DNA from: Blastocatellia bacterium
Lineage (GTDB): Bacteria; Acidobacteriota; Blastocatellia; UBA7656
DNA: 64,000 bases
Direction of reading: 5' to 3'
Assembly (NCBI GenBank): GCA_035315885.1
Contig: DATFXM010000194.1
Location: 172,825 to 236,824 of the forward strand
The notes beneath the pieces are model-generated. The model searched no databases. It had not been told where the DNA came from and worked only from the letters and a program-made list of their open reading frames with translations. Both the position numbers and the translations under genes were made by a program. Positions within the stretch are counted from its first letter, which is position 1. Each line of letters begins with the position of its first letter. Shown here in pieces: positions 3,796 to 52,360 of this stretch.

Positions 3796-3902
3796 GCCGC
3801 AAAGCGTCGCAAGGAACGCAAAGCGCGGAATCCCTGCGGGCTTTGCGGCTTTGCGTGAGACCCAACTCATGTAGCAACGCAACCCCTACAGGGTTGCGTT
3901 AC
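3796..3902 (+). terminator. GC-rich stem-loops downstream of the GT2 gene. This is terminator-like but has no U-tract.
   Basis: A perfect 10-bp stem aacgcaaccc/gggttgcgtt with a 5-nt loop at 3876-3900. A preceding cgcaaagc...gctttgcg hairpin. Confidence 0.3.
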
Positions 3903-30118: not shown

Positions 30119-30277
30119 CTTATGAGTTTCTGGTCTCTCGTTTCCGGTTTCCAGTTTGGGAGAACTCGGTTTTTTTTCCGCAGGCGTTTTTCTGACCAGC
30201 GGCGTAGTGCATCACGCATTAACATTAACGCCGCGGCGACCTAACTCGAAACCCGAAACTCGAAATCCGAACCGAGT
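30119..30277. repeat. Imperfect palindromic heptamer element (gtttccg / cgaaac arms).
   Basis: Left arm gagtttctggtctctcgtttccggtttccagtttggg. Right arm ctcgaaacccgaaactcgaaatccgaac. Confidence 0.6.
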
Positions 30278-31692: not shown

Positions 31693-31950
31693 GTTCTGGA
31701 TTAAGTGCTGAGTGCTGAGCGCTGAGTGCTGAGCGCTGAGCGCTGAGTATCAACCCCGAAGGGGTTGCGTCGCCCGGCCCAGGGTTGCCGTCCGCGGCTA
31801 CCCTGGGTAGGACGCCAAATATCTCGCCAACCCCGAAGGGGTTGCGTCGCCCAGCCCAGGGTTGCCGTCCGCGGCTACCCTGGGTAGGACGCCAAATATC
31901 TCGCCAACCCCGAAGGGGTTGGTACTCAGCACTCAGCACTCAGCACTTCC
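31693..31950. repeat. Large composite palindromic element. (ctgagtg/ctgagcg)n and (cactcag)n arms flank two tandem ~77-bp hairpin units.
   Basis: Left arm ctgagtgctgagcgctgagtgctgagcgctgagcgctgag. Two copies of the unit caaccccgaaggggttgcgtcgcc(c/a)gcccagggttgccgtccgcggctaccctgggtaggacgccaaatatctcgc. Right arm ggtactcagcactcagcactcagcac. Confidence 0.9.
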
Positions 31951-34166: not shown

Positions 34167-35195
34167 TTACGTCAAAACCGATACTAACGTCGCACGACGT
34201 ACCGGAGTCAGCCGGTGAAGTGCCTTCTGTTTCTTTTCCAGCGTCACGGTGACTGTCTGCTCGGCTTTGTTCCGTACAATGCGGAGTGTAATCTGGCCTT
34301 CAGCTTTCTTGTTGATGGCGCGCCGCACTGAAGCCACATCGTCTACCGGTTCGTTGTCAATAGCCACGATCACATCGCCTGCCTTGAGGCCTGCCTTGGC
34401 AGCCGGCCCATTCTCGCCTACGTGTGTGACCAACACGCCCTTCCCTTCCTTGACTCCGAAGTAGGTGGCAAGCTGATCGGTCAGAGATTCAAGGGATGCA
34501 TCCAACCGCGCGCCGCTAAAAAAGAAACCGTACTCGCCGGGCCCGACGAAGTTGAAATTGCCGAAGTTGTATTTGAAGCGACCGAGATCCTCGGAGTACT
34601 TCTTCGTCAGCTCTTCGGATTGTCGAAGTTGCTCCTGCGCCTTCTTCATCGCCTCCTCAGTGCTTCTTCGCAGTTTCTCGTCCAGTTCCGGCCGCCATAC
34701 AAAATTGTTCTCGCGCTTTGTCAGAGCGGCGCTCACTGTCTGATGAGCCCGCCCTCGGACAAACTCGATCGAGACGTTGCGCCCCGCGGGAGTCTCGCTC
34801 AGAAGCCTCTGGAGTTCGCGAACGCTGTCCACTCTGCGACCGTTGAACCCGATTATGACGTCGTTCTCTTTCAGGCCCGCTTTCTCGGCGGGACTGCCCT
34901 CGACCACCTTCATCACAATCGCACCTCGCTCCTCGCTCAGCGAGAGCTCCTTGGCGCGATCTGGCGTCACTTCCTCGAGGTAGACTCCCAGATACCCACT
35001 CTCGTCGAAAGGAACTGCCAAAGTCATCAGTGGCGCAGAGTCGTCTACCAGGGTGGTAAGCTGGTCCTTCTTCGCCTTCTCCGCCGCTTTCTGGGCTTCC
35101 TTTTCCTTCTGCTTTTCTTTCTGATCGTCGCTGGCCGCCGCGACTCCCACTCCGAGCACAAGAATGAGAACGGTCACAAGATGCACAAGCTTCAT
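34167..35195 (-). CDS. Secreted protein with two PDZ domains.
   Basis: Start at MKLVHLVTVLILVLG (signal peptide; ATG 35195). PDZ1 is GAIVMKVVEGSPAEKAGLKENDVIIGFNG. PDZ2 is GVLVTHVGENGPAAKAGLKAGDVIVAIDN. Lys/Glu-rich linkers. Confidence 0.7.
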   Translation of the reverse strand: MKLVHLVTVLILVLGVGVAAASDDQKEKQKEKEAQKAAEKAKKDQLTTLVDDSAPLMTLAVPFDESGYLGVYLEEVTPDRAKELSLSEERGAIVMKVVEGSPAEKAGLKENDVIIGFNGRRVDSVRELQRLLSETPAGRNVSIEFVRGRAHQTVSAALTKRENNFVWRPELDEKLRRSTEEAMKKAQEQLRQSEELTKKYSEDLGRFKYNFGNFNFVGPGEYGFFFSGARLDASLESLTDQLATYFGVKEGKGVLVTHVGENGPAAKAGLKAGDVIVAIDNEPVDDVASVRRAINKKAEGQITLRIVRNKAEQTVTVTLEKKQKALHRLTPVRRATLVSVLT

Positions 35196-35286
35196 AGTAG
35201 TCGTTCCTCCGATTTGCGTGTCCGGTAGTCTCGAATTAACTCTGCTATGCCGAGACACGCCCCCAAAACGCAAAAGTTCCAAATAC

Positions 35287-36522
35287 TTATTCAGTTTTTT
35301 CCGCTCCGCCGCCTGCACGGGTCGCCTTGAATACCCTTCGCGCCAGCCATGGCACCCTGGATAGCACACCTACCGTGAAATTTGCCGCGGCGGGTGAGGA
35401 AACGATTCCCCTTAACCAGTTAGCTGCTGTCAGCCGGTCCGAAAACTCTCGCCGGTACAGCTCGCCATAGCAGCCAATAGCCTCTTCCGTACCAACCGAT
35501 CTGCTGACTGCTTCTGCCGCCAGCTCGCCGGTCCGCAAGGCCATCTGAATGCCAGTCCCGGTGAACGGGTCGATCATCCCTCCCGCATCGCCTATCGCGA
35601 TTACACCGTCGCCGCCGAGGCGCGTCCTTCCAAATGTGAGCGGCCCAACCGTCAGCCACGCACCCTCTACCTCGGCGGTTCTCAGGCGATCACGTGCTGT
35701 CTGATTCGCGCACATGGTCCGTTGCAAAATCGCTTTCGGATCCGAGCGCGCGTCGCGCAGCACTTTTTCGCCAAGGATGAAGCAGATGTTGACCAGACCA
35801 TCTTCGATCCGCGACAGGCCGCCGTATCCCCCTGGAAAAAAGCACAGATCGAGCTGATCGTCGAGATCGGGGACTCCTGACAGGTGGGCCTCCATCGCAT
35901 AAAGGCGATAGCCCTTGAGTCCGCCAATTCGTTCGTGCTGCCCAACAACCAGTCGCGAGTTTCTGCCTGATCCGTCAAGCACAAATGCGGATCTGAATCG
36001 AACTGCAGAACCCGATGGAAGCGAAACTGCTTCGACACCAATCGTGCGCTTGCCATCAGACAACCTTTGTTTGACGGCGGTGCCATCCATGCACGCCACG
36101 CCAATCTCTGCGGCGCGTTCAAATAGAACCTGATCGAAACGCGCGCGGCTCAAGCTGATCGCGGCCTCTTGAGTCGGCGAAATATCCGGAACCTTGGACT
36201 CGACTGTTCTGCCGCTCGCAGTTACAACCCTGACTTTTGAAATCCGCTGCGCCCCGGCGTCAATCATTGCTTCAAGCACTCCTAGTCTGCGAAGGGTCGG
36301 CAGGCATTCAGGTGTGACAAATTCGCCGCAGAGTTTCGGCCGAGGCATTCGCTTCTCTTCAAGCAATAGAACCCGCGCGCCAAGCGTTGTGAGAGTTATC
36401 GCCGCTGAACAGCCTGCGGGTCCGGCGCCGACTACGATGACATCGAATTCGTCCACGAACTGACCTTTACATGTGAGCAATGAGCAACAAGCGATAAGGG
36501 AACAGCCGCCTGATTTCAACAT
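35287..36522 (-). CDS. FAD-dependent oxidoreductase, geranylgeranyl reductase family.
   Basis: FDVIVVGAGPAGCSAAITL and GDAGGMIDPFTGTG motifs. The start is ambiguous: ATG 36522, or GTG 36457, which sits immediately before VDEFDVIVVGAG. Confidence 0.7.
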   Translation of the reverse strand: MLKSGGCSLIACCSLLTCKGQFVDEFDVIVVGAGPAGCSAAITLTTLGARVLLLEEKRMPRPKLCGEFVTPECLPTLRRLGVLEAMIDAGAQRISKVRVVTASGRTVESKVPDISPTQEAAISLSRARFDQVLFERAAEIGVACMDGTAVKQRLSDGKRTIGVEAVSLPSGSAVRFRSAFVLDGSGRNSRLVVGQHERIGGLKGYRLYAMEAHLSGVPDLDDQLDLCFFPGGYGGLSRIEDGLVNICFILGEKVLRDARSDPKAILQRTMCANQTARDRLRTAEVEGAWLTVGPLTFGRTRLGGDGVIAIGDAGGMIDPFTGTGIQMALRTGELAAEAVSRSVGTEEAIGCYGELYRREFSDRLTAANWLRGIVSSPAAANFTVGVLSRVPWLARRVFKATRAGGGAEKTE

Positions 36523-37237
36523 GATCGAGGCCTGCGCTCCGCGAGAAACCGAGAAGCTCATCCCTCGTGAACCCTCGCAGCACCGAGACTGGGCCATCGT
36601 TTCGAGTCAGAAAGCTGGTGGCCAGAATTGGACCGCTCATTCTCGCGAAATAGTAGGGCACCAGATCCCGAACAAGATCGTTGACGATCACTGCTCGACG
36701 GGCAATCTTAGAGAAACTCATCAAAAGTTTAACCACATCCTCGTCCTTGAAGTGATGCAGGAACAGCGACGCGGTAACGAAGTCGAAGCTCCGCTCGGCG
36801 AACGGCAACGCAAGCGAGTCGGCTTCGACAAGCTGTACACCTCTGCGGACTCCCAGCTTCGATTTCGCGACTCGCAGGTTTCGTGCGCTGTAGTCGACTC
36901 CGACCACTTCAGCGGCGAATCCGTTCGCCTCGCTCCAGTCCAGGACCGCTCCCGGTATGTCTGCCGAACCTGTGCCAACATCCAGCAGTGAAAAAGCGTC
37001 GCCTGAGGTCACTGACTTCGCTTCACGGCGATTGTCCGGATTCGTGGCGATCTTCGATTGCTGAGTTGTCAGCAGTTCCGACAGCGCGGTCAGGATCGCG
37101 CGAGTTCCGCCAAGCCACTTGTTTACACGTCGCAGGTCTTGAAGGTTTTTCGCGACGTCATCGTCGGTTCCAACGCCTGCGTCGAGCAGTTCTTCTTCGT
37201 AGATTCGCTTTGGAGTCGGCATCAGGGCTGGAATCAT
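36467..37237 (-). CDS. Class I SAM-dependent methyltransferase.
   Basis: LLDVGTGSADI (motif I). VVGVDYS. LVEADSLALPF. The closest resemblance is to the ubiE/COQ5-type fold. Confidence 0.65.
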   Translation of the reverse strand: MIPALMPTPKRIYEEELLDAGVGTDDDVAKNLQDLRRVNKWLGGTRAILTALSELLTTQQSKIATNPDNRREAKSVTSGDAFSLLDVGTGSADIPGAVLDWSEANGFAAEVVGVDYSARNLRVAKSKLGVRRGVQLVEADSLALPFAERSFDFVTASLFLHHFKDEDVVKLLMSFSKIARRAVIVNDLVRDLVPYYFARMSGPILATSFLTRNDGPVSVLRGFTRDELLGFSRSAGLDHVEIRRLFPYRLLLIAHM

Positions 37238-37400: not shown

Positions 37401-40400
37401 ATGTCTACCAGGACCCTCACAAATGCCCGTGGAATAGATGAAGCGTTGGCTGCGGGCCGCGCCGCGATGGAGGCGAGCCAGTTCGAAGAGGCAGCCAACC
37501 ACTTCCGCCAGGCGTTGCGCATGGGTCCGCGTCCGGGCGACGAAGAAGCTCTAATCCGCTGCGAGCTGAGCAAAGCTCTAGAAAAGCGCGCGCTGAACCG
37601 CGAACAGCTCGACGCGATAGCGAAATACGAGAAGACAACAGAATTCAGCAGACTTTCCGAGCGCTGGCAGTTGCAGGTGCTGATCCGGCTGGCGAGTGGC
37701 CTGTCGGTCAACAACGACGTTCCACGCTCAATCGCTCTGTTCAATCAAGCCATCAAAATCGCACGCGACCGGCAGGACGACTCGGCCATCGGCGCGTGCT
37801 ATTTCGGTCTGGGCCGCGCATACCGGAACCTCCTCGAAATCAGAATCGCGCGGGACCAATACGTCTCGGCACTCGAACACTATCGGCGAACGGGCGACTG
37901 GCGGAAGCTCGCCGAATCGCATTTGTACATAGGGTATATCACGGCTTACGAAGGGGACTTCCGCGGCGCTCTTCAATCGCTCAAGCAGACTCTGGCGTTG
38001 GTGGGCAATCGCGAAGAGCACGACCTGCTGGGCCGGTGCTATATGTACATGGCGATCGCTTATGACAATCTGGGTTCGACCGACAAGGCGCTCGCGTCGT
38101 GGGACAAATGTCTCAGCCATTTTGAGCGGGCCGGGAATCGCATTCACTATGCGATAAACCAGAACAATCTCGCGGTCAAACTTATCTGGCTGGGAGAATG
38201 GTCGCGCGCTGAAAGCCTCGCCAGGCAGGCGATGGAGGTACTCCGAGACTCGCCAAGCATTGCCCAATACGCTTCGGTAGTCGACACGCTGGCCCGCGTC
38301 TATGTCCTTCAAGGAAAGCTCGACGAAGCCGATCAATTGCTTGCGCACTCCCTGGAAGTTATCAATTCGATCAAGACTGGCGAGTGGGTCGAGATCAGCA
38401 CTCGCATGACCATCGGCCTCAGCTATTTGATGAAGGGTGACCCCGAAAGCGCCAAGCAGCCACTCGGGCGGGCCGTCGACATTTGCCTGCGCGGCAGTGA
38501 TCTGCATTTCGCGTCAGAGGCGCAATTGCTGCTTGCGGATTCCCTTCTCCAAACTGGAGAGGTCGCGCAAGCACGAGAGATTGTCGATTCGGTGCGCAAT
38601 TACCTGAGAGACGCACCCAACATGCTTTCGTGGGGCATGATGATGCGCATGCTTGCGAAGCTGGAGGCTGCTGAAGGCCATCTCGCCGCAGCAATTCAGT
38701 CGCTCGGGCAGAGCAGCTCGATATATACCTTGCGAAGAAATCGATACGCGTGCGCGGTCAATCGAATAGTTTTGGCGGAGCTGCTGGAGCGTCAGGGACG
38801 AATCTCCGAGGCCCTCGACGAGGTGTCGAGCGCGCTGACTACATTTGCCGAGCTCGGCGCGGCTACCGACGAAAGGAATACGCAGACCAGGCTCGATACG
38901 CTCAAGGCGCGCGCCCAGGGTGAACCCGGCGAGGCGCCCGAGCCAAAGATAGTGCTTCGGGCGCCTTCATTTGATTTGGCCTCATCTCTCGTTTCCTCAC
39001 TGGACGGCTTCATAGCTCAACGCCTCGTTCAGGCATCGGTGTCGCGTGACCTGCTGCTTCACGAGCTGGCGGCCATCATCTCCGATCTCTCGCAGAGCCG
39101 CGGAACGATTGTAGCTGAGATCGCCGGTGAGGATCAGACAGCCTTTCACAGGCTCAATCTCAAGATCGCTGCCGGCGTAGGCCTGTCGGATCGCGAAGAG
39201 GCCGAGTGCCTTGCGATGCTGGCGGAGTTGCCGGTTGCGCACTATCACACCCGTTTCGTTTATCAATTGAACGACAACCAGCAGTCTCGGTTTTTGCTCT
39301 ACATTGTTGAACCTCACGCCGAGCGATTCCTCGAAGGCAAGGTCAACATTCAACCGCTTCTCGATATCGGGGAGCTTGGCCTCGAAGCGTACGTGCTGAA
39401 AAACAAGAGCAGGCGGACCCAGGTGTTCGATCCTGCGCGATTGCTGGCCCAGGTTGAGCTGCCGGGTTTCATATGCGCGAGCCGAGCAATGAGCAACGTG
39501 CTGGAACAGATCAATAAGATCCGTTCGTCGGACGTAACGGTGCTCATCACCGGCGAATCGGGGACCGGCAAGGAACTGGTCGCTCGAGCGATTCACGCGG
39601 GCAGTTCCCGGAAGATGAACACGTTCCTGCCGTTCAATTGTTCCGCGGCGCCGCACGAAATGATCGAGAGCCAGCTTTTTGGTTTCAGAAAAGGCGCATT
39701 CACCGGTGCGGTCGCCAACAACGAAGGCATAATCCGGGCTGCCGATCGCGGGACTCTGTTTCTGGATGAAATCGGAGACCTGCCGTTAAAGCTTCAGCCA
39801 AAACTGCTGCGTTTTCTTCAAGAGGGCGAAGTACATCCACTCGGCGAGAGCCAGCCGATCAGAGTCAACGTGCGGGTGCTTGCAGCGACCAACTCAGATT
39901 TGGAACGCGCGGTGGCCGAAGGCCGCTTTCGCGAGGATCTCTTTCACAGGCTTAACGTTATTCGCATCCAGGTACCACCGCTTCGGCAGCGCCGCGAAGA
40001 GATACCGGCTTTGATCAATTACTACTTGAGTCAGTATCTTCAAGACGCTGCGAAGACCGACATAAAGCTTTCTGAGGAAGCAGTGGATCTGCTTGTGGTC
40101 TATGACTGGCCGGGGAACGTTCGGCAGTTGTGCAATGAGGTACGGCGAATTGTGGCTTACGCCGACTCCGGAAGCGTGGTCACCCCGGACGGACTGTCGG
40201 AAGAGATTGTTCGAGCGAGCCGTGAGATCGACACGACGCCGACCCCGGTTCAAAAGATAGGGACACCGGTTGCGTCATCGACCGACTCGACGCTGTCGGA
40301 AGCGGTGGAGGAGCTGGAGCGCCGGATGATTCAGGACGCGCTGAAGCGATCCAGTGGCAACATCGCACGAGCTGCCAAGGAGCTGGGCCTGTCTCGAAAG

Positions 40401-40442
40401 GGTCTGTACCTGAAGATGGACCGTCTGAACTTCGACATTTGA
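37401..40442 (+). CDS. Sigma-54-dependent transcriptional activator (bEBP). Long TPR-like and GAF-like N-terminal region. No receiver domain.
   Basis: AAA+ sigma-54 activation domain: Walker A VLITGESGTGKE, GAFTGA loop (FGFRKGAFTGA), and EGEVHPLGESQPIRVNVRVLAATN. C-terminal Fis-type HTH (NIARAAKELGLSRKGLYLKM). The N-terminal ~620 aa are helical and TPR-like. Confidence 0.85.
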   Translation: MSTRTLTNARGIDEALAAGRAAMEASQFEEAANHFRQALRMGPRPGDEEALIRCELSKALEKRALNREQLDAIAKYEKTTEFSRLSERWQLQVLIRLASGLSVNNDVPRSIALFNQAIKIARDRQDDSAIGACYFGLGRAYRNLLEIRIARDQYVSALEHYRRTGDWRKLAESHLYIGYITAYEGDFRGALQSLKQTLALVGNREEHDLLGRCYMYMAIAYDNLGSTDKALASWDKCLSHFERAGNRIHYAINQNNLAVKLIWLGEWSRAESLARQAMEVLRDSPSIAQYASVVDTLARVYVLQGKLDEADQLLAHSLEVINSIKTGEWVEISTRMTIGLSYLMKGDPESAKQPLGRAVDICLRGSDLHFASEAQLLLADSLLQTGEVAQAREIVDSVRNYLRDAPNMLSWGMMMRMLAKLEAAEGHLAAAIQSLGQSSSIYTLRRNRYACAVNRIVLAELLERQGRISEALDEVSSALTTFAELGAATDERNTQTRLDTLKARAQGEPGEAPEPKIVLRAPSFDLASSLVSSLDGFIAQRLVQASVSRDLLLHELAAIISDLSQSRGTIVAEIAGEDQTAFHRLNLKIAAGVGLSDREEAECLAMLAELPVAHYHTRFVYQLNDNQQSRFLLYIVEPHAERFLEGKVNIQPLLDIGELGLEAYVLKNKSRRTQVFDPARLLAQVELPGFICASRAMSNVLEQINKIRSSDVTVLITGESGTGKELVARAIHAGSSRKMNTFLPFNCSAAPHEMIESQLFGFRKGAFTGAVANNEGIIRAADRGTLFLDEIGDLPLKLQPKLLRFLQEGEVHPLGESQPIRVNVRVLAATNSDLERAVAEGRFREDLFHRLNVIRIQVPPLRQRREEIPALINYYLSQYLQDAAKTDIKLSEEAVDLLVVYDWPGNVRQLCNEVRRIVAYADSGSVVTPDGLSEEIVRASREIDTTPTPVQKIGTPVASSTDSTLSEAVEELERRMIQDALKRSSGNIARAAKELGLSRKGLYLKMDRLNFDI

Positions 40443-40735
40443 GTGCTGAGTGCTGAGTCTTGAGTGCTAACCCCGAGGGGGTTGCGTCCACCAGCCCAAG
40501 GTTGCCGTCCGCGGTTACCCTGGGATCCCCGAACACCTAGATCCAACCCGGAAGGGGTTGCGTCGTTGAGCACACGGTTGCCGTCCACGTCTACCCTGGG
40601 AACCCGAACACCTAGATCCAGCCCCGATGGGTTTGCGTCGTTGAGCCCACGGTGCCGTCCACGTCAACCCTGGGACGCAATCCCATCGCGGTTGTACCCC
40701 ACCACTCAGAACTCAGAACTCAGAACTTCCGAGTG
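40443..40735. repeat. Large composite palindromic element. (ctgagtg)n left arm, three diverged ~75-bp hairpin units, (actcaga)n right arm.
   Basis: tgagtgctgagtgctgagtcttgagtgc. Then aaccccgagggggttgcgtcc...ccaaggttgccgtccgcggttaccctggg... repeated three times with divergence. Then cactcagaactcagaactcagaacttcc. Confidence 0.9.
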
Positions 40736-40751
40736 TGTACCTGCTTTACAG

Positions 40752-40840
40752 GTGTGAACTCACTACACATACCAGCTTAAGTTATTGAATTTCAAACAAG
40801 AGACTCGACTCGCGCTCGGAGATGTGTAGCTAGTTCACAC
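40752..40840. promoter_or_regulatory. 19-bp inverted repeat pair. It is a candidate enhancer (UAS) for the adjacent bEBP, or MITE-like termini.
   Basis: gtgtgaactcactacacat at 40752-40770. atgtgtagctagttcacac at 40822-40840, whose reverse complement is gtgtgaactagctacacat. The pair lies ~90-180 bp upstream of the candidate -24/-12 promoter. Confidence 0.4.
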
Positions 40841-40928
40841 TTCGCTCCGCCGGTTTCGTTTGGGCATTAGCCTGCCAACTTGTTGTATTCACGAGGTCGC
40901 AACTCCAACAAAGTGGTTGCGTCGTGCA

Positions 40929-40944
40929 GGCACGGACCTTGCAC
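40929..40944 (+). promoter_or_regulatory. Candidate sigma-54 (-24/-12) promoter.
   Basis: aGGCACGgaccTTGCA. GG and GC have the exact consensus spacing of TGGCACG-N4-TTGCA. About 75 nt downstream sits an SD-preceded small ORF. Confidence 0.45.
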
Positions 40945-41027
40945 AAGTCATAGCGAAGGCAGGGCTGAGGCGATCAGGTGAGGGGTTGCCGAGGCCAGGC
41001 CGTTAAGCCCTGAAAGGAGAGACAACC

Positions 41028-41090
41028 ATGTGCAACTCAAGCTTCCACCTGAACGAAGGACGAATTCTTTGCGATGTCCAAGCGCAATAA
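41028..41090 (+). CDS. Small ORF (20 aa) with a canonical SD. It may or may not be coding.
   Basis: aaAGGAGAgacaaccATG. Peptide MCNSSFHLNEGRILCDVQAQ. Third-position GC is low for this genome. Confidence 0.25.
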   Translation: MCNSSFHLNEGRILCDVQAQ

Positions 41091-41181
41091 GAGGTAAGAA
41101 ATCGACCTTTTGTTCAGCCACCGACAGAGGTGCGAAATTAGTTAATAGTCACCTCGTCGTCAGCCAAAGGAGAAACAAAGA

Positions 41182-41265
41182 ATGGTTGCGAATGGACTCC
41201 AGGCTAAGATCGGAGTGATCTTTGATGAGGTCGGGATCGAAGAAGTAGTCGCTCCCCGTTTTTAG
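41182..41265 (+). CDS. Small ORF (27 aa) with a canonical SD. It may or may not be coding.
   Basis: aAGGAGAaacaaagaATG. Peptide MVANGLQAKIGVIFDEVGIEEVVAPRF. It is followed by the 9-bp hairpin ccgcaggcg/cgcctgcgg. Confidence 0.25.
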   Translation: MVANGLQAKIGVIFDEVGIEEVVAPRF

Positions 41266-41879
41266 GACCTCTGAAGCATCAGCACGAGTTCGTAGGCACC
41301 GCAGGCGTGGTGAGGGACCCGCCTGCGGCGGCCTCGTTCTCTGCAATGGCCGCACGAATTGAAAGAAAGACGAGCGCTGGGCTCGACTGTCCTGCATTTG
41401 TCGAGCTCAGCCCCCTAATCAAAGAATCGGCCTCGCGAGACACTCCCGACGGCGCCCAAGACAAAATCGCCCCGGTCGCCGAATTCGAACACCGGGCCAC
41501 AACTCGAATCTAGCGCGAATCGGCACCGAGTCAGACGTGTGCTCGAAATCACGTCCGGTGGTTCGCCTTAACAACAGCGAACACCCGTGCCGTCGTGGCG
41601 CATCGATGCGGCTCGGCAAAAATATTCACCGACTATTCAGTACGTACTGATGCGATATAAGTCGCACTCGGCGCTGGGCTGTTTGAGTGCCCGAGGTTTG
41701 AATCTGCGCCCTTCTTTCACGTTGTCATCGGGCGTCGCCACGAAAAGTTTGCGAGTCGGCCGCTCGCAACACCACGATGAAGTCGGGGCACAATGATTGC
41801 GAAAGATGCGCCGTGAGCTTTCAGCCGGTGCGGCTCGAGCAACTCTCCTGCCGAGGGCACCGCACCGCTAAGGCTCACG

Positions 41880-42545
41880 AACTTGTTGAGTGCTGAGTGC
41901 TGAGTGCTGAGTGCTGAGTGCTGAGTGCTGAGTGCTGAGTGCTGAGTGCTGAGTGCCAAGCCCGACGGAATTGCGGAAGGGCCGATCAAACCAGGTTTCC
42001 GGACGCAACCCTTTCAGGGTTGCAGAGATTTGACCAACTTGACCCAGGGTAGCCGCAGACGGCAACCCTGGGCTGGACGACGCAACCCCTTCGGGGTTCC
42101 AGAGATTTGACCAACTTGACCCAGGGTAGCCGCGGACGGCAACCCTGGGCTGGACGACGCAACCCCTTCGGGGTTCCAGAGATTTGACCAACTTGACCCA
42201 GGGTAGCCGCAGACGGCAACCCTGGGCTGGACGACGCAACCCCTTCGGGGTTGGCGCTCAGAACTCAGCATTGATAAAGCCGGCACTCACCATTTGATAA
42301 GTTCAGCACTCAGCACTCAGCACTCAGCACTCACGCTCAGCACTCACACTCGCACTCAGCACTCAGCACTCACACTCATACTCAGCGCTCACACTCACAC
42401 TCGCACTCAGCACTCAGCACTCACGCTCAACACTCGCACTCAGCACTCACGCTCAGCACTCGCACTCAGCACTCAGCACTCAGCACTCAGAACTCAGAAC
42501 TCAGCACTCAGAACTCAGAACTCAGAACTCCCCTCCTTCCCCAGA
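41880..42545. repeat. Largest composite element in the window, ~660 bp. (gagtgct)n array, then at least three inverted-orientation ~77-bp hairpin units, then a ~250-bp (cactcag)-variant heptamer microsatellite.
   Basis: About 10 copies of gagtgct at 41886-41955. The unit (gac)ccagggtagccgc(a/g)gacggcaaccctgggctggacgacgcaaccccttcggggttccagagatttgaccaactt is repeated at least three times at 41960-42250. It is the reverse complement of the 31750 unit. Heptamers cactcag/cactcac/cgctcag/aactcag run from 42300 to 42540. Confidence 0.9.
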
Positions 42546-42580
42546 AACAAGTCTTGATCTATGCTATCCACAGTTAAAGG

Positions 42581-43243
42581 ATGGCCGATATAGAAGCCAA
42601 CGAAACACTCTGTGATTGCGGCGCAAGACTCACGCCTAATCTGCGTTACTGCCTCTCTTGTTACCGCCCAGTTAAAAATCGCGATCAGATGCAGGCGCAC
42701 TTCAACGCTGCCCGAGCCGTGGACACTACCAGACGCTTCGACCCAACCACCGTTTTCCTGCCCGAAGTGCACGAAGCTCTCGCAAAACGCGCGAGACGAC
42801 GCAAACGGCTCCTCGTCGCAGGACTGATCGCGGTGTTGTTGATAGTCGCTGGTCTCTTTGCGTTCGATTCGATCCATCGCCGGCGCCAGTTGGCGGAGCG
42901 CGCACAGTCCCGGGAGAGAATGGCGCAGCGAGAACTCGCGATGTTGGCCGACGGTCTCGAGAGGTTCAAGGCTGACGTAGGCCGCTATCCGACCGAACAG
43001 GAAGGACTCGCGTCGCTCACTCGCAGGCCCTCAAAAAACTCTTCGGTCGATGTAGCGCAGGCGGGCGACTGGATGGGCCCTTACATAGAAGGCGTCTTTG
43101 AAGTCGACCCTTGGGGTAACGACTACGTCTATCGCCTGGTGGACAACGGCGCAGCTTTCGAACTGATCTCATACGGCCCTCAAGGCGACTCCGGCGCGGG
43201 TAAAGTGTTGCGCGCGGCGCCACCTCGTGAAATATTGCGTTGA
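42581..43243 (+). CDS. Zinc-ribbon plus single-TM protein with a C-terminal type II secretion GspG pseudopilin-like domain. It lacks a prepilin leader.
   Basis: N-terminal CDCG...CLSCY zinc ribbon. TM helix LLVAGLIAVLLIVAGLFAF. C-terminal GRYPTEQEGLASL...WMGPYIEG..DPWGNDYVYRL...FELISYGPQGDSGAG closely matches the GspG globular domain (RYPT.EGL...W.GPY...DPWG..Y.Y......F.L.S.G.DG). Confidence 0.7.
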   Translation: MADIEANETLCDCGARLTPNLRYCLSCYRPVKNRDQMQAHFNAARAVDTTRRFDPTTVFLPEVHEALAKRARRRKRLLVAGLIAVLLIVAGLFAFDSIHRRRQLAERAQSRERMAQRELAMLADGLERFKADVGRYPTEQEGLASLTRRPSKNSSVDVAQAGDWMGPYIEGVFEVDPWGNDYVYRLVDNGAAFELISYGPQGDSGAGKVLRAAPPREILR

Positions 43244-46443: not shown

Positions 46444-49272
46444 ATGTCACAAGATGAGCAACACAGAAAACTAACTCAGCTCGCGAAGGACGCTGAGGAT
46501 CGCGGAGGGCAACTGCAGAACTACCCGCCTCCTGATAAATGGGACGACTGGGTTGAGTTGGATGCGCGCGCATGGCCGCGACGAGTCGAGCGTCACTATC
46601 AACTGATCCCGACTGTGTGCTTCAACTGCGAGTCGGCTTGCGGCCTGCTGGCCTACGTGGACAAACAGACCGGAGAGATCCGCAAGTTCGAAGGCAACCC
46701 TCTCCACCCCGGGTCGCGCGGGCGCAATTGCGCCAAGGGGCCGGCGACAATCAACCAGATCGATGATCCCGAACGAATCCTGTATCCGCTGAAGCGGAAA
46801 GGTAAGCGTGGCGAAGGCGAATGGGAGCGCACAACCTGGGACGAGGTTCTGGACACTTTCTCCGCACGAATACGGAAGGCGCTGATCGATGGGCGTCGCG
46901 ACGAAGTCGTCTACCACGTCGGACGCCCGGGTCACGACGGGTACATCGATCGAGTTCTTCAGGCGTGGGGAGTTGACGGTCACAACTCTCACACGAATAT
47001 CTGCTCTTCGTCCGCGCGTCTCGGTTACGCGCTTTGGCAAGGAGCGGACCGGCCCTCGCCCGATTATTCAAACGCCAGGTTTATTCTTCTGCTCAGCTCG
47101 CACCTGGAAACGGGGCACTACTTCAATCCGCATGCTCAACGAATAATCGAAGGCAAAATGAGCGGCGCCAAAATCGCGGTGATCGATCCGCGTCTTTCGA
47201 ACACCGCCTCCTCAGCGAACTATTGGTTGTCACCGTATCCCGGCACCGAAGCTGCGTTGCTGCTTTCGATGGCCTCAGTCATCCTGAATGAGAATCTCTT
47301 CGACCGCCAGTTCGTGCGACGCTGGGTGAACTGGGAAGAATTCATGCGCTTTGAGCGGCCGCACCTCCCGTCTTCATTTGAATCTTTCATTGACGAGCTC
47401 AGGCAAGTGTATTCAAGCTTCACGCCGGAGTTTGCTGCTGAGGAATGCGGCGTGGAAGCATCCACGATTGTCGAGGTAGCGCACGAGATCGCTCGAGCGG
47501 GTTCCGCGTTTGCCTCGCACGTATGGCGCAGCGCGGCAAGCGGAAACCTCGGAGGTTGGCAGGTTGCACGCGCGTTGATGTTCCTTAACGTCCTGACTGG
47601 AAGCGTCGGAACTCGCGGGGGTGTTTGTCCTAACACGTGGAACAAATTCGTGGCGACTCCGTTTTCAAAGCCGGAGCCACAAAAAGTATGGAGTGAGCTC
47701 CTGTGGCCCCGCGAGTATCCCCTCTCGCATCACGAGCTGAGTTTCCTGCTTCCCCATTTATTGAAAGACGGGCGAGGCCATCTGTCGGCGTACTTCACTC
47801 GCGTTTACAACCCGGTTTGGACCAATCCTGATGGATTGAGTTGGATTGAGGTGTTGCGCGATGAGTCACTGATTGAGCTTCATGCAGCGCTGACGCCGGT
47901 ATGGAGCGAGACCGCGTGGTTTGCCGACTATGTCTTGCCGATGGGCCTGGGCGCTGAGCGGCATGACTTGATGAGCCAGGAGACGCACTCTGCTCAATGG
48001 ATTTCGTTTAGACAGCCGGTCAAACGAGTGGTCGCCGAGAGATCCGGCGCCCACGTGGACTACACGTATCAGGCCAACCCCGGCGAGGTTTGGGAAGAGG
48101 ACGAGTTCTGGATCGAGTTGTCGTGGAGGATCGATCCCGACGGAAGTCTCGGCGTACGCCGACATTTCGAGTCCCCGTACCGGCCCGGCGAAAAGGTGTC
48201 GATCGAAGAGTACTATCGGTGGATCTTCGAAAACAGCATACCCGGCCTGAAAGAACAGGCAGCGAGCATGGGCCAGGAGCCGCTCGACTACATGCGACGG
48301 ATCGGCTCGTTCTCGGTAAGGAAGAATGTCTACGATCTGCACGAGGCTGCGGTCTCCGAGGCACAGCTCGAAAACGCACGGATCGACGATCAAACCGGAA
48401 GGATAATCAAGCCCGGGGTGGGTGCGATGAGCGCCGTCGGCTTGATGATCGACGGAGAGCCGCGCGTCGGGTTCAACACGCCCTCGCGGAAGCTCGAGTT
48501 GTACTCCAGGACGATGGCAGAATGGAAGTGGCCTGAGCACAGCCTGCCGGGTTACATGCGCAGTCACATACACTGGAGAGACCTGGAGCGCGGCTCGGGG
48601 GAATACATTCTGGTGCCTACTTTTCGGCTACCTACGCTGATTCACACTCGCTCGGGCAACGCGAAGTGGTTGTATGAAATCTCGCATACGAATCCGTTAT
48701 GGGTTAACCCCGGTGACGCGAAGGTGCTCGGCTTCGAGAATGGGGCGCTGGTCAGAGTGAACACGGAGATCGGATACTTCGTGATTCGGGCCTGGGTGAC
48801 TGAAGGAATCAGGCCTGGCGTAGTTGCGTGTTCGCACCATCTCGGCAGGTGGCGTCTTAAGCGTGAGGAAGGCGCGGACCGCTGGGCCTCTGCCCTGGTA
48901 GATCTGGAAGAACTCGGTGAAGGCCGGTGGAAGCTGAGACGCGTTGAAGGGATCGCGCCGTTCGAAAGCGCGGACCCCGATTCGGAAAGAATCTTCTGGC
49001 GCGAAGCAGGCGTACATCAGAATCTGGCTTTCCCGGTGCATCCGGACCCGGTGAGCGGAATGCACTGCTGGCATCAGCGAGTGCGACTGGAAAGCGCGAA
49101 AGACGGCGATCAGTACGGGGACGTCGTGGTGGACACGAAGCTGTCTCGAGATGTCTATCGCAAGTGGTTGGAGATGACGCGGCCCGCTCCCGGACCCGAG
49201 GGTCTGAGGCGACCGCGATGGTTCTCACGTCCGGTCAGGCCCGCCGATGAGGTGTACGTCATGACGGTTTAG
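46444..49272 (+). CDS. Molybdopterin (bis-MGD) oxidoreductase catalytic subunit of the Psr/Phs/Ttr/Arr-like clade. No twin-arginine signal.
   Basis: N-terminal 4Fe-4S motif CFNCESACGLL...NCAKG. Its length and the PGVVACSHHLGRW region are typical of Mo-bisPGD enzymes. The N-terminus MSQDEQHRKLTQLAKD lacks an RR motif. Confidence 0.75.
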   Translation: MSQDEQHRKLTQLAKDAEDRGGQLQNYPPPDKWDDWVELDARAWPRRVERHYQLIPTVCFNCESACGLLAYVDKQTGEIRKFEGNPLHPGSRGRNCAKGPATINQIDDPERILYPLKRKGKRGEGEWERTTWDEVLDTFSARIRKALIDGRRDEVVYHVGRPGHDGYIDRVLQAWGVDGHNSHTNICSSSARLGYALWQGADRPSPDYSNARFILLLSSHLETGHYFNPHAQRIIEGKMSGAKIAVIDPRLSNTASSANYWLSPYPGTEAALLLSMASVILNENLFDRQFVRRWVNWEEFMRFERPHLPSSFESFIDELRQVYSSFTPEFAAEECGVEASTIVEVAHEIARAGSAFASHVWRSAASGNLGGWQVARALMFLNVLTGSVGTRGGVCPNTWNKFVATPFSKPEPQKVWSELLWPREYPLSHHELSFLLPHLLKDGRGHLSAYFTRVYNPVWTNPDGLSWIEVLRDESLIELHAALTPVWSETAWFADYVLPMGLGAERHDLMSQETHSAQWISFRQPVKRVVAERSGAHVDYTYQANPGEVWEEDEFWIELSWRIDPDGSLGVRRHFESPYRPGEKVSIEEYYRWIFENSIPGLKEQAASMGQEPLDYMRRIGSFSVRKNVYDLHEAAVSEAQLENARIDDQTGRIIKPGVGAMSAVGLMIDGEPRVGFNTPSRKLELYSRTMAEWKWPEHSLPGYMRSHIHWRDLERGSGEYILVPTFRLPTLIHTRSGNAKWLYEISHTNPLWVNPGDAKVLGFENGALVRVNTEIGYFVIRAWVTEGIRPGVVACSHHLGRWRLKREEGADRWASALVDLEELGEGRWKLRRVEGIAPFESADPDSERIFWREAGVHQNLAFPVHPDPVSGMHCWHQRVRLESAKDGDQYGDVVVDTKLSRDVYRKWLEMTRPAPGPEGLRRPRWFSRPVRPADEVYVMTV

Positions 49273-49455
49273 AGTCTTGGGTTTAGGGTTTAGAGTTTTG
49301 GGTTTAGTGTTTCGGGATTAGTGTTTCGGGGTCCGGAGATTTTGACGAGGAAGAGTTCTGTTATCGGCTGCTGCCTTCAGTCGCCAAAGACAACCAGAGA
49401 CCCGAAACCAGAAACTAGAAACCCCGAAACCCTAAACCCGAAACCTAATTTAGGT
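49273..49455. repeat. Palindromic heptamer element (ggtttag/ggtttcg versus cgaaacc/ctaaacc).
   Basis: gggtttagggtttagagttttgggtttagtgtttcgggattagtgtttcgggg ... gacccgaaaccagaaactagaaaccccgaaaccctaaacccgaaacc. Confidence 0.8.
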
Positions 49456-52079: not shown

Positions 52080-52275
52080 AAATCGTGAATAGTGAATAGT
52101 AAATGGTTTCTTGGCCCGGCTTCTGGGTTTCTGGTTCCTGGTTCCTGGTTCGAGGAATTGCGACTCTGCGATGGTCGGGAGTCGTTTGCCTAAGTCCTGC
52201 TTGCTCGGATGACAAGCATGCCCGCTAAGGAACAGCTGTTTCAACCAGAAACCCGAAACCAGAAACCCTAAACCC
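52080..52275. repeat. Palindromic heptamer element (ggtttct/ggttcct versus agaaacc/ctaaacc) in a divergent promoter region.
   Basis: ggtttcttggcccggcttctgggtttctggttcctggttcctggttcgagg ... caaccagaaacccgaaaccagaaaccctaaaccctgaaccctaaacc. Confidence 0.8.
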
Positions 52276-52360
52276 TGAACCCTAAACCGTTCCGAATAAC
52301 CCTTACCCCTTGCCTGACGTTGCGACCACCAATAGAATCTCCTTTGAGCATGGAGATGTC

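Follow-up and report, generated by a model that had tools for sequence, protein, structure and literature searches.

A predicted sigma-54 transcription unit combines a TPR-containing enhancer-binding protein with two micro-ORFs of a peptide-precursor family in Blastocatellia

A 64-kb stretch of DNA (hereafter the window) from a bacterium of the Blastocatellia (Acidobacteriota), whose kin are uncultured Blastocatellia, carries a gene for a bacterial enhancer-binding protein (bEBP). Downstream of this gene lie three palindromic candidate enhancer sites, a predicted sigma-54 promoter and two very short open reading frames (ORFs), pep1 and pep2. Comparison with related loci indicates that the bEBP with its intact contact loop, the three-site enhancer, the -24/-12 promoter and the two translated micro-ORFs form one conserved module. 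The whole is probably best explained as a dedicated bEBP/sigma-54 unit expressing two micro-proteins of one peptide-precursor family. In its regulation it follows the textbook bEBP/sigma-54 unit, here with a dedicated activator and a precursor-peptide operon; the unusual features are hypervariable six-residue cores, tandem multi-core micro-ORFs and the splitting of leader from core. The features of the locus are collected in Table 1.

The comparison drew on about 42 full-length bEBP orthologs (53-74% identity), all from metagenome-assembled genomes (MAGs) and metagenomes of Blastocatellia/Acidobacteriota. Among 78 related loci in total, with the peptide module sought within 6 kb downstream of the bEBP orthologs, a pep2-type gene was found in 21: 19 from a first scan combining tblastn and motif matches, and two, L074 and L075, fetched later. 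The latter two are the closest relatives of the window, and L075 was used for codon comparisons.

The evidence for the regulatory part of the module is phylogenetic. Two of the candidate enhancer sites lie in the arms of an inverted repeat (40752-40770 and 40822-40840), which match at 17 of 19 positions, stand 51 nt apart and are unique in the window. A preliminary description of the window had picked out this repeat, giving the gap as 52 bp, and had missed the related site at 40734-40750. Each of the 21 peptide loci contains three 17-bp palindromes of this kind, positioned near -191, -172 and -104 relative to where the -24 element starts, and the 63 sites yield the consensus TGTGTAGCWGCTTCACA. 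Site 1 has a counterpart at -188 to -194 in 18 of the 21 loci and site 3 at -102 to -105 in 19; no further good enhancer site occurs elsewhere in the window. A GGCAC-N5-TTGC element is likewise found 83-372 nt upstream of the peptide ATG in 21/21 loci. Its representative in the window, AGGCACGGACCTTGCA, is the sole match with at most one mismatch to TGGCACG-N4-TTGCW in the 64 kb, with one mismatch and exact spacing; the motif had been recognized earlier with the right spacing, one base off its actual position (40928-40943). This footprinting supports the predicted enhancer-promoter pair. Transcription is predicted to start near 40953-40955, and a promoter scan of the intergenic island found no sigma-70 promoter; an rpoN gene was not seen in the 64 kb.

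The proposal of a bEBP-controlled sigma-54 unit with small-peptide products, made before any relatives were compared, is supported by the same enhancer sites recurring at fixed distances from the -24/-12 element in all 21 peptide loci. The same footprinting of the enhancer-promoter pair argues that the inverted repeat is not a miniature inverted-repeat transposable element (MITE). That possibility, raised in the preliminary description, is excluded by the uniqueness of the repeat in the window and its fixed distance from the promoter in 21 loci. We also rejected a MITE or repetitive extragenic palindromic (REP) identity for the repeat on its copy number, as only the two arms occur in 64 kb, with 0 expected by chance.

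Both micro-ORFs are preceded, as had been described, by an AGGAGA Shine-Dalgarno (SD) sequence at 7 and 8 nt, respectively, and their substitutions are those of coding sequences. Between the window and L075, the first 12 codons of pep1 differ by six synonymous and no non-synonymous changes, and pep2 from GVIF to its end by 10 synonymous and three non-synonymous ones; both ORFs are therefore under protein-level selection. Amino-acid motifs of the peptides are kept, with different nucleotides, across loci that have diverged by 50-79%. On these grounds we take pep1 and pep2 to be translated genes. Conservation of the small ORFs, which the preliminary description had left to a tblastn and synteny search, was found: pep2-type genes occur in 21 loci, and pep1 has orthologs in L075 (MCNSSFHLNEGRLLQG) and L074 (MCNSSLHCDFGKLLSD). 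A tblastn match of pep1 in L024 (GVLLCQIQAQ) was discarded as spurious, since it lies inside an ORF of about 790 aa. Neither peptide has a match in Pfam or NCBIfam at E <= 10, and a metagenome scan with a DNA pattern for the pep1 start (SD plus MCNSSFH) gave 0 matches.

It is very improbable that the ORFs are not genes, with the locus producing a small RNA (sRNA) or upstream-ORF attenuators for a downstream gene. The sRNA alternative, entertained in the preliminary description, is at odds with the synonymous substitutions of both ORFs, a pattern of the coding type that also disfavors the attenuator version; the peptide motifs are moreover conserved despite nucleotide divergence. What this reading would explain is the 5' untranslated region (UTR), whose conservation exceeds that of synonymous sites: the window and L075 share a stretch of about 50 identical nt, while synonymous sites nearby have diverged. 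RNAalifold predicts a stem-loop here, with no compensatory changes among three sequences, and the 5' UTR may be an RNA element or a protein-binding element. Peptide ORFs do precede same-strand genes for a major facilitator superfamily (MFS) protein and permeases in L013, L014 and L028, but no same-strand gene follows in the window, L012, L015, L021, L074 or L075. Further points against it are a hairpin 3' of pep2, whose 99-nt context folds at -45.2 kcal/mol (z = -2.75) and which is likely to be the 3' end of the transcript, and the lack of an Rfam match: an E-value scan of 40300-42700 returned only a chance-level match to a Streptomyces sRNA, on the minus strand.

The activator itself has an AAA+ domain with GAFTGA loop and Walker motifs and a C-terminal helix-turn-helix (HTH), as a sigma-54 activator should. 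Pfam recognizes Sigma54_activat (E=4e-67, aa 691-857), AAA_lid_14, HTH_8 and many TPR families (aa ~14-480), and the Walker A (GESGTGKE, aa 718), GAFTGA (aa 765) and DEIG (aa 789) motifs are intact. Pfam detects no receiver domain in the 1013-aa protein, in agreement with the preliminary description, and its NCBIfam equivalog scores are all far below cut-off. An AlphaFold2 (AF2) model of aa 1-690, built with 77 homologs (predicted local distance difference test score, pLDDT, 87.6), comprises a TPR superhelix (aa 1-506, pLDDT mostly >90), a disordered linker (508-533) and an alpha/beta domain (536-668). TPR families and model thus uphold the TPR-like N-terminus proposed earlier, although the extent of ~620 aa then given was too long, the superhelix ending near aa 506. 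Foldseek searches of the PDB with the TPR part retrieve generic peptide-binding TPR proteins (LGN/Pins, OGT, APC subunits). The segment that follows had been called GAF-like. Pfam gives no GAF match for the protein; modeled alone (AF2, pLDDT 84), aa 536-668 has top PDB matches that are nearly all GAF domains (3ci6, 2vjw, 3e0y), though weak ones (best E 2.7e-3, TM 0.35-0.49), so the name holds at the level of the fold only. Such a TPR plus GAF-like sensor module is unusual on a sigma-54 activator. Some related loci encode another TPR-AAA+-HTH sigma-54 activator, shorter at 603-631 aa, directly 3' of the peptide genes (L074, 4872-6683; L011, 10204-12099); the window has no second copy.

Table 1. 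Features of the bEBP locus and of the adjoining sigma-54 unit, in window coordinates
Feature	Position	Strand	Remarks
bEBP, 1013 aa, no receiver domain	37401..40442	+	ORF; Pfam; orthologs
TPR superhelix sensor domain, aa 1-506, 26 helices	37401..38918	+	AF2 model; Foldseek
Small GAF-like alpha/beta domain, aa 536-668	39006..39404	+	AF2 models; Foldseek
AAA+ sigma-54 interaction domain, aa 691-857	39471..39971	+	Pfam PF00158, 225 bits; GAFTGA
Fis-type HTH_8 DNA-binding domain, aa 969-1008	40305..40424	+	Pfam PF02954, E=8e-14
REP-like composite repeat, not part of the system	40443..40730		Tandem Repeats Finder (TRF), 76-bp unit x 2.8, plus flanking heptamers
Candidate enhancer (upstream activating sequence, UAS) site 1, TGTGTACCTGCTTTACA	40734..40750		-194 from start of -24 element
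Candidate enhancer site 2, TGTGAACTCACTACACA	40753..40769		-175; left arm of inverted repeat
Candidate enhancer site 3, TGTGTAGCTAGTTCACA	40823..40839		-105; right arm of inverted repeat
Predicted sigma-54 promoter, AGGCACGGACCTTGCA	40928..40943	+	GG 40929-40930, GC 40941-40942; conserved in relatives
Conserved 5' UTR with possible stem-loop	40955..41013	+	~50 nt identical to L075; ends just 5' of pep1 SD
pep1, 20 aa, MCNSSFHLNE-GRILCD-VQAQ (MCNSSFHLNEGRILCDVQAQ)	41028..41090	+	Core-type; AGGAGA 7 nt upstream
pep2, 27 aa, MVANGLQAKIGVIFDEVGIEEVVAPRF	41182..41265	+	Acidic leader-type without core; AGGAGA 8 nt upstream
GC-rich hairpin 3' of pep2	41295..41333	+	Inverted repeat I2; folding energy

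Classical bEBP/sigma-54 regulons with N-terminal sensors include those of NifA, NorR and FhlA (GAF), and NtrC-type enhancers are part of the same logic. The Blastocatellia unit shares with them an AAA+ domain with GAFTGA, a C-terminal Fis-type HTH, a regulator gene beside its target, and several palindromic enhancers 100-200 bp upstream of a GG-N10-GC promoter. It differs in its sensor, where a TPR superhelix of 500 aa is joined to a reduced GAF-like domain instead of a receiver, PAS or V4R domain, and in its sole conserved target, a pair of micro-ORFs and not an enzyme operon.

pep2 belongs to a large family. Its leader motif is GVIFDE..IEEVVAP, and in the family alignment E-E-x-x-A-P is invariant and G-V nearly so. 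The 19 loci of the first scan contain 23 leader-type ORFs, to which the pep2 orthologs of L074 and L075 are added, and a profile search with the pep2 family found 438 database homologs at E <= 0.01, none with a Pfam domain and all unnamed or named 'hypothetical protein' save for one evidently wrong annotation. Most members have a long-tail form, in which a conserved acidic leader (e.g. MTNEMTILSEGVILDDLMIEEMEEVVAP) is followed by a hydrophobic tail, mostly of six residues; these genes are single or paired. The tails are hypervariable even behind identical leaders (GVALLG, GAIICQ, AIILTN, GVVLSE, GHLLTD and others). A short-tail form, with 0-4 residues after Ala-Pro, is found in the window and in L002, L005, L011-L015, L021, L028, L072, L074 and L075. 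In short-tail loci, the first SD-preceded ORF 3' of the promoter, at the position of pep1, consists of head-to-tail hexapeptide repeats: MNE(GILLGD)3(GIMLGD)3GILLAN; MKMNE(GILLSD)3...(GHLLAN)3; MCK...(GILLGD)5; (GVLLGD)3; (GFLLAD)n. The repeat units resemble the tails of long-tail members (GILLTD, GFLLSD, GILLGD). In the window, the Ala-Pro of pep2 is followed by RF alone, and pep1 lacks a leader. The leader and variable core that most relatives join in one precursor are here split over two ORFs: given the single hexapeptide unit in pep1, core and leader are encoded separately in loci of the window type.

Hexapeptide-repeat ORFs also occur outside these loci. A search for them gave 10 matches among 5.8 billion proteins, a low number that probably reflects how seldom such ORFs are called. 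Two paralogous TPR-bEBP loci, L017 (9094-9900) and L018 (9251-9525), have two to four SD-preceded hexapeptide-repeat ORFs (e.g. MSNGILVGDGIMLSDGIMLSDGLLLSDGLLLSD), with a variant enhancer motif, TGTATACCTGGTAAACA, at -191, their own sigma-54 promoter and no leader-type ORF. The metagenomic peptides P0247, P0249, P0245 and P0248 carry hexapeptide repeats (GVLLSDGVLLGD...) behind a double-glycine-type leader (…AEIDAVTGG), which, on P0247 and P0249, would mark the repeat part as an exported moiety. One database relative scores on Pfam Hexapep (PF00132), the model of left-handed beta-helix hexapeptide repeats, and one is named an 'isoleucine patch' acetyltransferase-like protein; the repeats thus mimic those of left-handed beta-helices. 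Two further sequences, P0080 and P0120, repeat leader end and core within one ORF (…EEMEEVIAP-RIAINHNETL…EEVEEVIAP-RIAINHNETL…) and are multi-cassette precursors with a different core type.

In relatives, long-tail genes are followed by a gene for a fusion protein of 700-920 aa. Its N-terminal half is an intramembrane metalloprotease (HE[FL]AH, 6-7 predicted transmembrane segments) and its C-terminal half a periplasmic adaptor of the HlyD type, as judged by matches to HlyD models; the fusion also matches the YydH/LiaK epipeptide peptidase model NF058609. A protein with HD-GYP, GAF and GGDEF domains, concerned with cyclic di-GMP (c-di-GMP), is linked as well. The same order, HD-GYP/GAF/GGDEF gene, peptide(s) and protease-adaptor, was met in three look-ups anchored on the peptides. 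Two of these places also have a TPR bEBP; the third (L078) has, on the opposite strand, only a sigma-54 activator of 388 aa that lacks TPR. In L005, L012-L015, L021 and L028, the linked genes include MFS and duplicated FtsX/MacB-type permeases. No post-translational modification enzyme is linked in the window or in the related loci examined. In the contigs of L033 (6001-9055) and L076 (3618-6499 and 6975-9218), from long-read MAGs, the bEBP and HD-GYP/GGDEF genes are each split into two ORFs, probably through assembly frameshift errors and not as a feature of the biology.

This neighborhood recalls the daptides and epipeptides (MpaA/MpaP; YydF/YydH, LiaK). As in those systems, a locus has several short precursor ORFs, a conserved acidic/hydrophobic leader ending in Pro(-1) precedes a variable core and, in relatives, an HExxH peptidase homolog adjoins the precursors. 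Daptide leaders terminate in Pro(-1), and an intramembrane peptidase cleaves them off (10.1101/2023.03.08.531785), which makes cleavage after the invariant Ala-Pro reasonable to assume here. Differences are equally clear. The Thr that daptides invariably have at the C-terminus is lacking, the tails ending in G, N, D, E and others; neither an oxidative decarboxylase, an aminotransferase, a methyltransferase nor a radical SAM epimerase is linked; the peptidase forms a fusion with a HlyD adaptor; the host is Gram-negative; and the window is without a peptidase. We therefore rejected a daptide identity, for want of the Thr and of MpaB/C/D/M-type enzymes and with the peptidase of the relatives below the NF041824 (daptide_HExxH) cut-off. 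Membership in the strictly defined RiPPs (peptides made on the ribosome and modified after translation) was rejected too: no modifying enzyme is linked, and the 64 kb of the window hold no homolog of a leader peptidase or exporter. The methyltransferase gene upstream of the bEBP was not counted as evidence of a maturase, as its conserved block recurs at loci in which no peptide module was detected.

The same linked genes bear on whether the products are antimicrobial or competition peptides, bacteriocin- or RiPP-like, for which permeases or the fusion would provide export and immunity and whose bEBP would be triggered by an environmental cue. A hypervariable core behind a conserved leader would fit, as would a homolog of daptide/epipeptide-type leader peptidases fused to an export adaptor, the linked MFS and MacB-like permeases, and the double-glycine variants, which resemble class II bacteriocin export signals. 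Six unmodified residues would nevertheless be very short for such an agent, no modifying enzyme is linked in the loci examined, the window has no exporter or immunity candidate, and the linked c-di-GMP enzyme points toward signaling and not killing. On balance we consider this function unlikely.

The mechanism that we propose for the dedicated unit runs as follows. The bEBP would bind the three 17-bp palindromes (40734, 40753, 40823) through HTH_8, oligomerize there and, its N-terminal sensor region permitting, remodel sigma-54 RNA polymerase at 40928-40943. A bicistronic transcript of ~350-400 nt, presumably ending at the hairpin near 41295-41333, would encode pep1, with its core-type hexapeptide unit, and pep2, an acidic leader. 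In relatives, the protease-HlyD fusion would cut after Ala-Pro and pass the core to an exporter, and the hexapeptide part, once released or exported, would act as a diffusible signal or a bioactive peptide. A conserved partner would recognize the leader: the protease where there is one, the most plausible candidate in loci of the window type being the bEBP's TPR/GAF sensor. pep2 or a pep1-derived peptide acting on the TPR/GAF module might then feed back on its own promoter; binding of either to the bEBP is the most economical reading of leader conservation because the bEBP is the only conserved linked protein in window-type loci.

If the leader does contact the bEBP, secretion need not be invoked in window-type loci: the peptides could be intracellular regulators only, pep2 (acidic, with its IEEV motif) serving in a simple feedback loop as anti- or co-activator at the GAF-like or TPR domain. 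In the window, L074, L075, L002 and L072, the bEBP is the sole protein always linked to the leader, the leader is strongly conserved even without core and protease, and TPR superhelices of this type, with LGN/Pins among the fold matches, bind extended peptides. However, the leader in most relatives directly precedes a cleavable core beside a membrane protease-adaptor, indicating an export-related role, and pep1 would be left unexplained. We give this purely intracellular role no more than a low probability.

The combination of a TPR regulator with tiny precursor genes suggests a further comparison. In the RRNPPA quorum-sensing systems of Bacillota (Rap/Rgg/NprR/PlcR/PrgX/AimR), a TPR receptor is encoded beside a propeptide gene (PMC4873490, PMC11343458, PMC6458997), and tandemly duplicated pheromone propeptides are among their members (PMC11343458). 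Our 21 loci are similar in that a cytoplasmic TPR regulator is encoded beside a tiny propeptide gene under its predicted control, that candidate mature parts are short (5-9 aa), hydrophobic and hypervariable, and that several propeptides repeat the unit in tandem. Whereas RRNPPA regulators have an N-terminal HTH (or phosphatase) ahead of the TPR, this part is taken here by a sigma-54 AAA+ activator whose HTH is C-terminal (TPR-GAF-AAA+-HTH); the propeptides have no Sec signal, export would proceed via the protease-adaptor fusion, and the phylum is Acidobacteriota. RRNPPA membership was accordingly rejected, since both regulator architecture and fold neighbors (LGN, OGT, APC subunits) differ. 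We put forward as a tentative possibility of rather low probability a Blastocatellia pheromone system in which hexapeptides or the free leader would be sensed in the cytoplasm by the bEBP TPR/GAF region, with auto-induction and coupling to c-di-GMP through HD-GYP/GGDEF. In such a system the hexapeptides could come, with the same reserve, from protease-cleaved leaders or from tandem or split precursors, and the window would represent a minimal receiver with a split precursor.

Other short peptides offer partial parallels. The PatS/PatX/HetN morphogen peptides of heterocystous cyanobacteria are products of micro-ORFs of 13-30 aa whose C-terminal penta- or hexapeptide is the active, diffusible part; the ligand of PatS is HetR, not a bEBP, and sigma-54 is not known to be involved. 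The likeness consists of a Gram-negative host, micro-ORFs and a proposed short C-terminal active part, and no sequence relation is known. Like multi-core precursors (cyanobactins; eukaryotic alpha-factor-type repeats), the positional homologs of pep1 repeat one hexapeptide, e.g. (GILLGD)6; unlike them, they have neither spacers nor recognizable cleavage signals between units, the ORFs are of 12-47 aa, and pep1 is a single unit.

Several observations weigh against the interpretation as a dedicated peptide-expressing unit or against parts of it. Since 0.77 sigma-54 matches are expected by chance in the window, the single match is not significant alone; the element becomes so by its conservation across loci. 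The hairpin at 41295-41333 has no clear U-tract and is not called by a simple terminator scan. The single unit of pep1, GRILCD, is atypical (Arg, Cys), and pep2 cannot yield a core because only two residues follow its Ala-Pro. Among the 50 best Foldseek matches listed for the TPR part there is no RRNPP member. On NF041824 the fusion protein reaches 194-200 bits, short of the cut-off of 300, and is thus a homolog and not an equivalog. tblastn searches of the 64 kb with the proteins of relatives found no homolog of the protease-HlyD, HD-GYP, MFS or MacB-like proteins, so that processing and export of pep1 and pep2 are unsupported in the window organism. Finally, the peptide module was not found within 6 kb for about half of the bEBP orthologs (e.g. 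L001, L023, L024). In these three loci, the bEBP is 68-69% identical to the window protein and upstream synteny is kept; downstream lies an ORF of 780-840 aa, and the 6 kb contain neither enhancer nor promoter nor peptide module, so that some lineages have lost or relocated the module.

Acidobacteria rank among the most abundant bacteria of soil, and to our knowledge almost nothing is known of their cell-cell signaling and ribosomal peptides. We found no Pfam or NCBIfam model and, in the library searched, no paper describing these peptides or this type of bEBP, and a literature search on sigma-54/bEBP with RiPP, Acidobacteria or signaling peptide gave nothing relevant. A peptide-pheromone system, if that is what the locus encodes, would be of a kind not described in Gram-negative bacteria, and a candidate for peptide quorum sensing outside Firmicutes, linked to c-di-GMP. 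More generally, an unannotated, widespread peptide family that comes with its own regulator, sigma-54 promoter and enhancer of three sites has a readable regulatory code, and the conserved enhancer and promoter motifs can be used to find micro-ORFs missed by gene callers.

The surroundings of the unit bear on its origin. Upstream, 30 loci keep the order PDZ protease, FAD oxidoreductase, methyltransferase, bEBP, so the locus is ancestral and not an insertion; in the window, the block of PDZ, FAD and UbiE-like methyltransferase genes (34167-37237, minus strand) lies immediately upstream of the bEBP gene and divergent from it. Downstream, relatives have at this position an RNase E/G and a radical SAM gene, neither of which is in the window, and synteny thus breaks at 41271-41880. 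The preliminary description had seen an AT-richer island of ~1.1 kb after the bEBP; this applies to 40731-41270, with 50.4% GC vs 56.5% for the window, and not to 41271-41880, some 600 bp with 59.5% GC and no convincing ORF. Nothing meaningful was found for 41271-41890 by tblastx or blastn against all loci, nor any Rfam family. On its minus strand, 41271-41880 has three weak terminator-like sites (41385, 41483, 41769). Further downstream, the window contains repeat arrays and genes unrelated to the unit, for a T2SS-G-like (type II secretion) pseudopilin, a cysteine dioxygenase and an Fe-S/NrfD protein.

The island is indeed flanked, as noted earlier, by the two largest repeat arrays of the window. 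They are made up of a composite REP-like element whose 76-77-bp unit contains two hairpins (AACCCCGAAGGGGTT; CCCAGGGT...ACCCTGGG) and is repeated in tandem; inverted heptamer runs, (GAGTGCT)n / (TCAGCAC)n, flank the arrays. Copies lie at 3876-3900, 31704-31921, 40443-40730 and 41887-42530; the unit matches 12 times in the window and not once in the 78 related loci, which makes the element a lineage-specific expansion. The bEBP stop codon is 290 nt from enhancer site 1 in the window vs 60-130 nt in L075/L074, and one REP-like copy has been inserted in between.

The opposite orientation of the two flanking arrays and the broken downstream synteny might suggest a recently acquired mobile cassette bounded by the arrays, with the inverted repeat as a MITE end. 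This is the least probable of the explanations considered and, like the non-coding one, is contradicted by the data: the inverted repeat is unique in the window and at a fixed promoter distance in 21 loci, the PDZ-FAD-methyltransferase-bEBP order is conserved in 30 loci, and the arrays are self-contained REP-like elements that are also present at 3876 and 31704-31921 and absent from relatives. The acquired-cassette idea of the preliminary description was abandoned on these grounds, the linkage of bEBP, enhancer and peptides being class-wide. A separate kind of repeat, telomere-like heptamer arrays (AACCCGA/AACCCTA, complement GGTTTAG), occupies intergenic positions at 1430-1461, 30243-30271, 49266-49445 and 52243-52288.

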